NCBI RefSeq assembly: GCF_055900595.2
Contig: NZ_CM148325.1
Length of the DNA stretch: 64,000 bases
Direction: 5' to 3' (one strand)
Positions within the stretch are counted from its first letter, which is position 1. Each line of letters starts with the position of its first letter. Positions 63,733 to 64,000 of the stretch are shown here, in pieces. The notes beneath the pieces were generated by a model. That model had not been told where the DNA came from, did no database searches, and saw nothing but the letters and a program-made list of their open reading frames with translations. Position numbers and translations under genes: made by a program.

Positions 63733-63939
63733 TAGCAATACTCTTCTGATTTTGAGAATTGTGACTTTGGAAGATTGTAGCGCCAGTCACAGAAAAATGT
63801 GATGGTTTTAGTGCCGTTAGCGTAATGTTGAGTGTAAACCCTTAGCGCAGTGAAGCATTTATTAGCTGAACTACTGACCGCCAGGAGTGGATGAAAAATC
63901 CGCATGACCCCATCGTTGACAACCGCCCCGCTCACCCTT

Positions 63940-64000
63940 TATTTATAAATGTACTACCTGCGCTAGCGCAGGCCAGAAGAGGCGCGTTGCCCAAGTAACG
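63940..64000 (+). promoter_or_regulatory. Start of the lysC leader / lysine riboswitch, truncated by the window edge
   Basis: Sequence gtactacctgcgctagcgcaggccagaagaggcgcgttgcccaagtaacg matches my recollection of the lysC 5-prime leader, preceded by a TTGACA -35-like hexamer near 63916; divergent from pgi as in E. coli. Confidence 0.4.

Follow-up and report, generated by a model that had tools for sequence, protein, structure and literature searches.

Promoter and 5′ end of the Escherichia coli lysC riboswitch leader at the edge of a 64,000-nucleotide window

The lysine riboswitch of the Bacillus subtilis lysC gene works via an intrinsic transcription terminator. The lysC leader of Escherichia coli shares with this L-box the aptamer family, with its five-helix junction and lysine as the ligand, and the class of the controlled enzyme, aspartokinase; unlike the B. 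subtilis leader, it has no intrinsic terminator, and it hides the ribosome-binding site and exposes sites for RNase E and Rho. The thiM and btuB riboswitches of E. coli are likewise located in the 5′ UTR and control access to the Shine–Dalgarno sequence, but the fall in their mRNA is a mere, non-nucleolytic consequence of blocked translation, whereas in lysC the conformation itself exposes the RNase E sites.

In E. coli K-12, the lysC riboswitch (Rfam family RF00168) has been described as "dual-acting" (Caron et al. 2012), and the part played by Rho is treated in PMC10946432. The K-12 leader, 306 nt long, binds L-lysine and represses lysC (PMC10946432, citing Caron et al. 2012). [quoted passage not shown] When lysine is present, P1 forms, the Shine–Dalgarno sequence is sequestered, and both RNase E sites (Site1 and Site2) are single-stranded, as is a C-rich site near +240 at which Rho loads (PMC10946432). 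Rho, with NusG, terminates transcription at G309 and further downstream (PMC10946432). The element considered below is the same one: it is already known, it is among the best-characterised riboswitches of E. coli, and nothing new is learned here about the lysC element itself.

Identity of the locus and the lysC promoter

The window, that is, the whole stretch of 64,000 nucleotides that was analysed, almost certainly ends (63916–64000) with the promoter of E. coli lysC, the gene for lysine-sensitive aspartokinase III, followed by the first 50 nt of the lysC mRNA. Its last 20 kb (44001–64000) are 100% identical to several complete E. coli genomes, e.g., NZ_CP098223.1, and the segment 63400–64000 is matched at ≥95% identity in 5425 of 5426 complete E. 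coli genomes, the listed matches being annotated as "pgi | riboswitch". Positions 63733–64000 are also 100% identical to K-12 MG1655. Because of these identities and of the number of matching genomes, the resemblance to the lysC leader is not due to chance.

The sequence downstream of position 64000 was taken from other, identical genomes and not from the window's own record. The extension comes from a locus (L001) of a genome that matches the last 20 kb with 100% identity, and its positions are converted to window-equivalent ones by adding 60899 (pgi lies at 1184–2833 of this locus). Over the entire pgi–lysC intergenic region, the matching genome and K-12 agree at 530 of 530 positions, so that they show no sequence difference, whether in the promoter, +1, aptamer, RNase E sites, or start codon; of the K-12 leader, the window contains only +1 to +50. 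For comparison with other species, orthologous loci were collected via relatives of the LysC protein, and the pgi–lysC region was aligned for nine enterobacterial taxa.

According to its open reading frame and to the RefSeq annotation of a 100%-identical genome, the pgi coding sequence (glucose-6-phosphate isomerase) occupies 62083–63732 on the minus strand, with the ATG at 63732–63730. The first intergenic base is 63733, and pgi (−) and lysC (+) are divergent, as the original prediction had said. The range stated with that prediction of the lysC leader was 63733–64000, which stands for 63951–64000 and fails for 63733–63950, i.e., for most of the range: the DNA from 63733 to about 63803 corresponds to the predicted 5′ UTR and promoter of pgi on the other strand, and 63804–63950 is upstream and promoter DNA of lysC. 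The string that had been recognised as the 5′ end of the leader, gtactacctgcgctagcgcaggccagaagaggcgcgttgcccaagtaacg, occurs once in the window, on the plus strand at 63951–64000. The identification was thus correct and the length was not, since the string comprises 50 nt and not the last 60 or so.

In the published numbering, the leader is counted from the transcription start, and G309 is the G of the AUG (Ghosh et al. 2024, PMC10946432). The same paper gives G349, U354–357, and A364 as Rho termination products and 250–253 as RNase E Site1, and all of these positions, G309 included, fit the right bases only if +1 is the G at 63951 of the plus strand (position 3052 of the matching locus; K-12 position 4233539). 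We therefore assign +1 to 63951 on the numbering used in this later paper, which comes from the laboratory of the primary papers. The string begins exactly at the +1 of the experimental literature, and in this respect the call at the window edge was accurate to the base.

The −35-like element TTGACA, also part of the original prediction, is found at 63916–63921 on the plus strand (−35 to −30), 29 nt before the string; it is a perfect −35 hexamer and is invariant in the nine taxa. The −10 region TTTATTTATAAAT (63938–63950, plus strand) contains TATTTA as the best-placed hexamer (63940–63945, −11 to −6, with an 18-nt spacer), which agrees with the consensus at three of six positions; because TATTTA is non-consensus, the −10 assignment is ambiguous. 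Within this region, TTTATTTAT is invariant across the nine taxa. The promoter sits correctly with respect to the published +1. A consensus promoter scan of 63600–64000 returned no plus-strand promoter under the scan criteria. Such an outcome fits a weak, activator-dependent −10.

Aptamer, 5′ hairpin, and proposed switch

When the sequence was extended and scanned with the lysine riboswitch covariance model, as had been proposed as a check, RF00168 was matched at full length (model positions 1–182 of 182). The score is 99.5 bits (E = 3.3e-27), where the gathering score of this family is 30 bits. The match lies at 3070–3266 of the matching locus, window-equivalent 63969–64165, and a PGAP "riboswitch" feature has the same coordinates. 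The riboswitch had correctly been called truncated by the window edge: 32 of the 197 aptamer nucleotides (63969–64000) are inside the window. The aptamer begins at +19, 18 nt from the lysC +1, and the start of lysC (lysine-sensitive aspartokinase 3) follows on the same strand at window-equivalent 64257, 92 nt past the aptamer end, which places the aptamer in the 5′ UTR.

On the window alone, the model gave 10.8 bits and E = 0.57 in the last 100 nt (a 3′-cut match at 63969–64000), below the gathering score, and a Rfam scan of the 6 kb from 58000 to 64000 gave no lysine riboswitch match at E ≤ 10. The score is sub-threshold because only 32 of the 197 nucleotides are present and no helix has both strands. 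Since the window alone is statistically insufficient, the riboswitch call depends on the extension; it should be noted that for an edge fragment like that of lysC the covariance model cannot confirm a call unless the sequence is extended.

According to the RF00168 alignment, the part of the aptamer inside the window, all on the plus strand, comprises five unpaired bases (63969–63973), the P1 5′ strand CAGAAG (63974–63979), which can be extended by C63973, the junction AGGC (63980–63983), the P2 5′ strand GCGUUGCCC (63984–63992), the internal loop AAGUAA (63993–63998), and the first two bases of P2a (63999–64000). In the covariance-model alignment of the complete aptamer, all model helices of the P1–P5 five-way junction are paired, with few non-canonical pairs. 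Of the conserved core (AGAGG.GC ... GGAG.GCU), AGAGGCGC is in the window at 63978–63985, and GGAGCACU is also present; the tertiary contacts, namely the L2–L3 loop–loop interaction and the P2 turn motifs, fall beyond the window.

Ligand-free folding of +1 to +324 pairs +199–203 with +256–260 and +209–214 with +244–249, i.e., gives anti-P1, with probabilities of 0.95–0.99, and P1 is not present in this unconstrained ensemble. Because unconstrained folding yields anti-P1 and no P1, the P1 5′ strand inside the window would compete for +205 to +211. UCUUCC occurs at +250 and +258 of the leader.

The literature is the source for lysine binding and for control through RNase E, Rho, and translation; placed on the present coordinates, the published findings suggest the following course of events. 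Transcription would start at G63951, using the TTGACA −35 and the weak A/T-rich −10, and the transcript would open with a GC hairpin at +7 to +22, with the aptamer following from +19. The P1 5′ strand (63973–63979) would be the deciding strand of the switch. With lysine in the five-helix junction, it would pair with +205 to +211, and once P1 is closed, the downstream platform would hide the Shine–Dalgarno sequence, with the RNase E sites (+250 and +258) and the Rho site (about +240) left single-stranded; the expected outcome is a block of translation together with cleavage of the mRNA and early termination of transcription. If lysine is absent, +199 to +214 would pair with +244 to +260 as anti-P1, which would mask the RNase E and Rho sites and free the ribosome-binding site.

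The 5′ hairpin of the leader, CCUGCGC-UA-GCGCAGG (63957–63972, plus strand, +7 to +22), is a perfect palindrome that abuts P1. It is predicted to form 5–6 bp, with −9.9 kcal/mol for the first 30 nt, and the 50-nt fragment as a whole folds no better than its shuffles (z = −0.91). The stem is kept, with changes in the loop only, in Escherichia sp., E. albertii, and Kluyvera, and a different GC-rich hairpin stands at the leader 5′ end in Cronobacter. Because the stem shows no compensatory changes among the compared taxa, its role can only be inferred, and it could be protection of the 5′ end or insulation of folding.

The best surviving alternative concerns this palindrome, CCTGCGCTAGCGCAGG (63957–63972), which might be a DNA operator for a dimeric regulator or a small attenuator or terminator, and not a passive RNA hairpin. 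It is a perfect 7+7 dyad at +7 to +22, a stretch in which repressors can stop elongation; TTT follows the GC block both in E. albertii and in the short-leader alleles described below; and the literature mentions promoter-level DNA elements in lysC control. In E. coli, however, the palindrome has no T-run downstream (CCAGAAG follows), the terminator scan made no call, and the short-leader taxa and Cronobacter have other GC-rich sequences in place of the dyad; with no compensatory changes in the stem, neither role, RNA or DNA, is demonstrated. On balance, we consider an operator or attenuator improbable and keep the reading of an RNA hairpin at the 5′ end of the leader.

A separate observation concerns the extreme 5′ end of the transcript. 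The heptanucleotide ACUACCU (+3 to +9, 63953–63959) is perfectly complementary over 7 nt to AGGUAGU at +299 to +305 (window-equivalent 64249–64255), which separates the Shine–Dalgarno sequence from the AUG. In the unconstrained ensemble the two pair with a probability of 0.92; in E. albertii, Kluyvera, and Cronobacter, they are far less complementary. This pairing, as modelled, is probably incidental.

Presence and loss of the riboswitch in Enterobacteriaceae

Among the orthologous loci, RF00168 was found upstream of lysC in Escherichia sp. (99.9 bits), E. albertii (98.9 bits), Kluyvera (94.3 bits), and Cronobacter (82.7 bits); the riboswitch-bearing loci are L001, L005, L008 (E. albertii), L011, and L013 (Cronobacter). 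The Kluyvera and Cronobacter orthologues reach these 94 and 83 bits despite differing helix sequence. The family is absent upstream of lysC in Salmonella enterica (L009), Citrobacter braakii (L010), the C. amalonaticus type (L007/L006), Enterobacter asburiae (L012), and [Enterobacter] lignolyticus (L014).

In these five riboswitch-less taxa the leader is 78–86 nt long and lacks both the aptamer and the anti-P1 region. All five share one boundary, which lies just after the 5′ GC block, at the equivalent of window positions 63972/63973, and the short leaders rejoin near the second UCUUCC-like site. The short-leader taxa retain the promoter, the upstream dyad, and the ribosome-binding-site region. 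Lineage-specific insertions were also seen exactly between the 5′ hairpin and the P1 5′ strand, of about 87 nt in E. albertii and about 200 nt in Cronobacter; judging from the aligned sequences, the hairpin/P1 junction looks like an indel hotspot.

These alleles raise the question of whether the window itself derives from a strain or species with a riboswitch-less lysC, as in Salmonella, Citrobacter, and Enterobacter, so that its match would reflect a shared promoter only. Such alleles do exist, with TTGACA and TTTATTTAT intact and with a GC-rich block past the start. Against this, the window contains CCAGAAGAGGCGCGTTGCCCAAGTAACG (63973–64000), the 28 nt with which the segment absent from all short-leader alleles begins, and it is 100% identical over 20 kb to riboswitch-bearing E. 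coli genomes, with the stretch present in 5425 of 5426 genomes of this species. A riboswitch-less allele is effectively excluded because the 5′ strands of both P1 and P2 are present inside the window, and we attach next to no probability to it. The window end is thus read as the start of a riboswitch-bearing leader.

The distribution suggests, tentatively and with somewhat less than an even chance in our estimate, that the lysC lysine riboswitch is a removable module in Enterobacteriaceae, lost either through one deletion allele spread by recombination or through repeated loss at a fragile junction. If this is true, close relatives of E. coli control aspartokinase III without the riboswitch, presumably by promoter-level control of the ArgP type, and the riboswitch-less neighbouring genera would be a natural experiment on what the riboswitch contributes beyond promoter control. 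A literature search on riboswitch loss in Salmonella, Citrobacter, and Enterobacter gave nothing relevant, which does not show that the loss is undescribed.

A search of species-representative genomes with the degenerate pattern AGAGGCGCGNNGNNNAAGTAANNGNG retrieved one Escherichia sp. and three unrelated matches, in Cephaloticoccus, a Chloroflexi MAG, and a Bathyarchaeota MAG, which were taken as chance. The pattern proved too narrow to catch other genera, and it did not retrieve even E. coli from this collection.

Upstream region and neighbouring elements

Upstream of the lysC promoter, the dyad ATGAAAAATCCGCAT (ATG-N9-CAT) lies at 63891–63905, i.e., at −60 to −46 of lysC, and contains T-N11-A, the form of LysR-type regulator sites. 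Written as ATGAAAAATCC.CAT, it is invariant or nearly so at 14 of 15 positions in the nine taxa, riboswitch-less ones included. Repression by lysine of genes in the lysine pathway is reported to be mediated by ArgP, which belongs to the LysR type of regulators (Marbaniang & Gowrishankar 2011, as cited in PMC6254735). Going by that report and by the shape of the motif, we infer that the dyad is a candidate site for a LysR-type regulator such as ArgP; an A-tract UP-like element is the other candidate.

Farther upstream, the block TTAT(T/A)AG (63859–63865), about 90 nt upstream of the lysC start, is near-invariant in the nine taxa amid diverged surrounding sequence. Another block conserved in the nine taxa is TACTG (63872–63876), and the two lie about 75–92 nt upstream of the lysC start. 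Their conservation suggests that they may form a regulator site for lysC or pgi. Salmonella (L009) has its own 43-nt insertion between the pgi and lysC promoters (alignment A3, columns about 117–159).

The only promoter-like site in the scan of 63600–64000 is a predicted sigma-70 promoter of pgi on the minus strand (63774–63803), with the −35 ATCACA at 63803–63798, an 18-nt spacer, and the −10 TACAAT at 63779–63774, so that the pgi 5′ UTR would measure about 35 nt. Neither hexamer varies among the nine aligned taxa (alignment columns G49–A55 and T74–T79).

The mechanical list of open reading frames includes a 67-codon minus-strand frame with a GTG start (63935–63732), and we see virtually no chance that it is a real small gene overlapping the control region, given that it has no annotation in RefSeq genomes, that its region carries frame-breaking indels and the 43-nt Salmonella insertion in the nine-taxon alignment, and that conservation falls into short blocks typical of regulatory DNA, with no codon periodicity.

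Some minor features were noticed around the locus. In the LysC cluster at 90% identity, the members of 308–309 aa (P0006, P0007, P0009, and P0012) are named "zeta toxin (family protein)" by NCBI, which looks like an oddity of naming or of clustering that affects truncated aspartokinases. Just past the pgi stop codon, a REP-type palindromic element at 61979–62050 is matched on both strands by the Rfam family naRNA4 (RF02564); the minus-strand match scores 74.7 bits, whereas that on the plus strand, at 48 bits, stays under the family gathering score. Escherichia sp. carries the element as well. The yjbE–pgi intergenic region contains a full-length match to the enterobacterial STnc430 sRNA family (RF02053) at 61765–61913 on the plus strand (72.1 bits), which ends in a terminator-like hairpin and is conserved in Escherichia sp.
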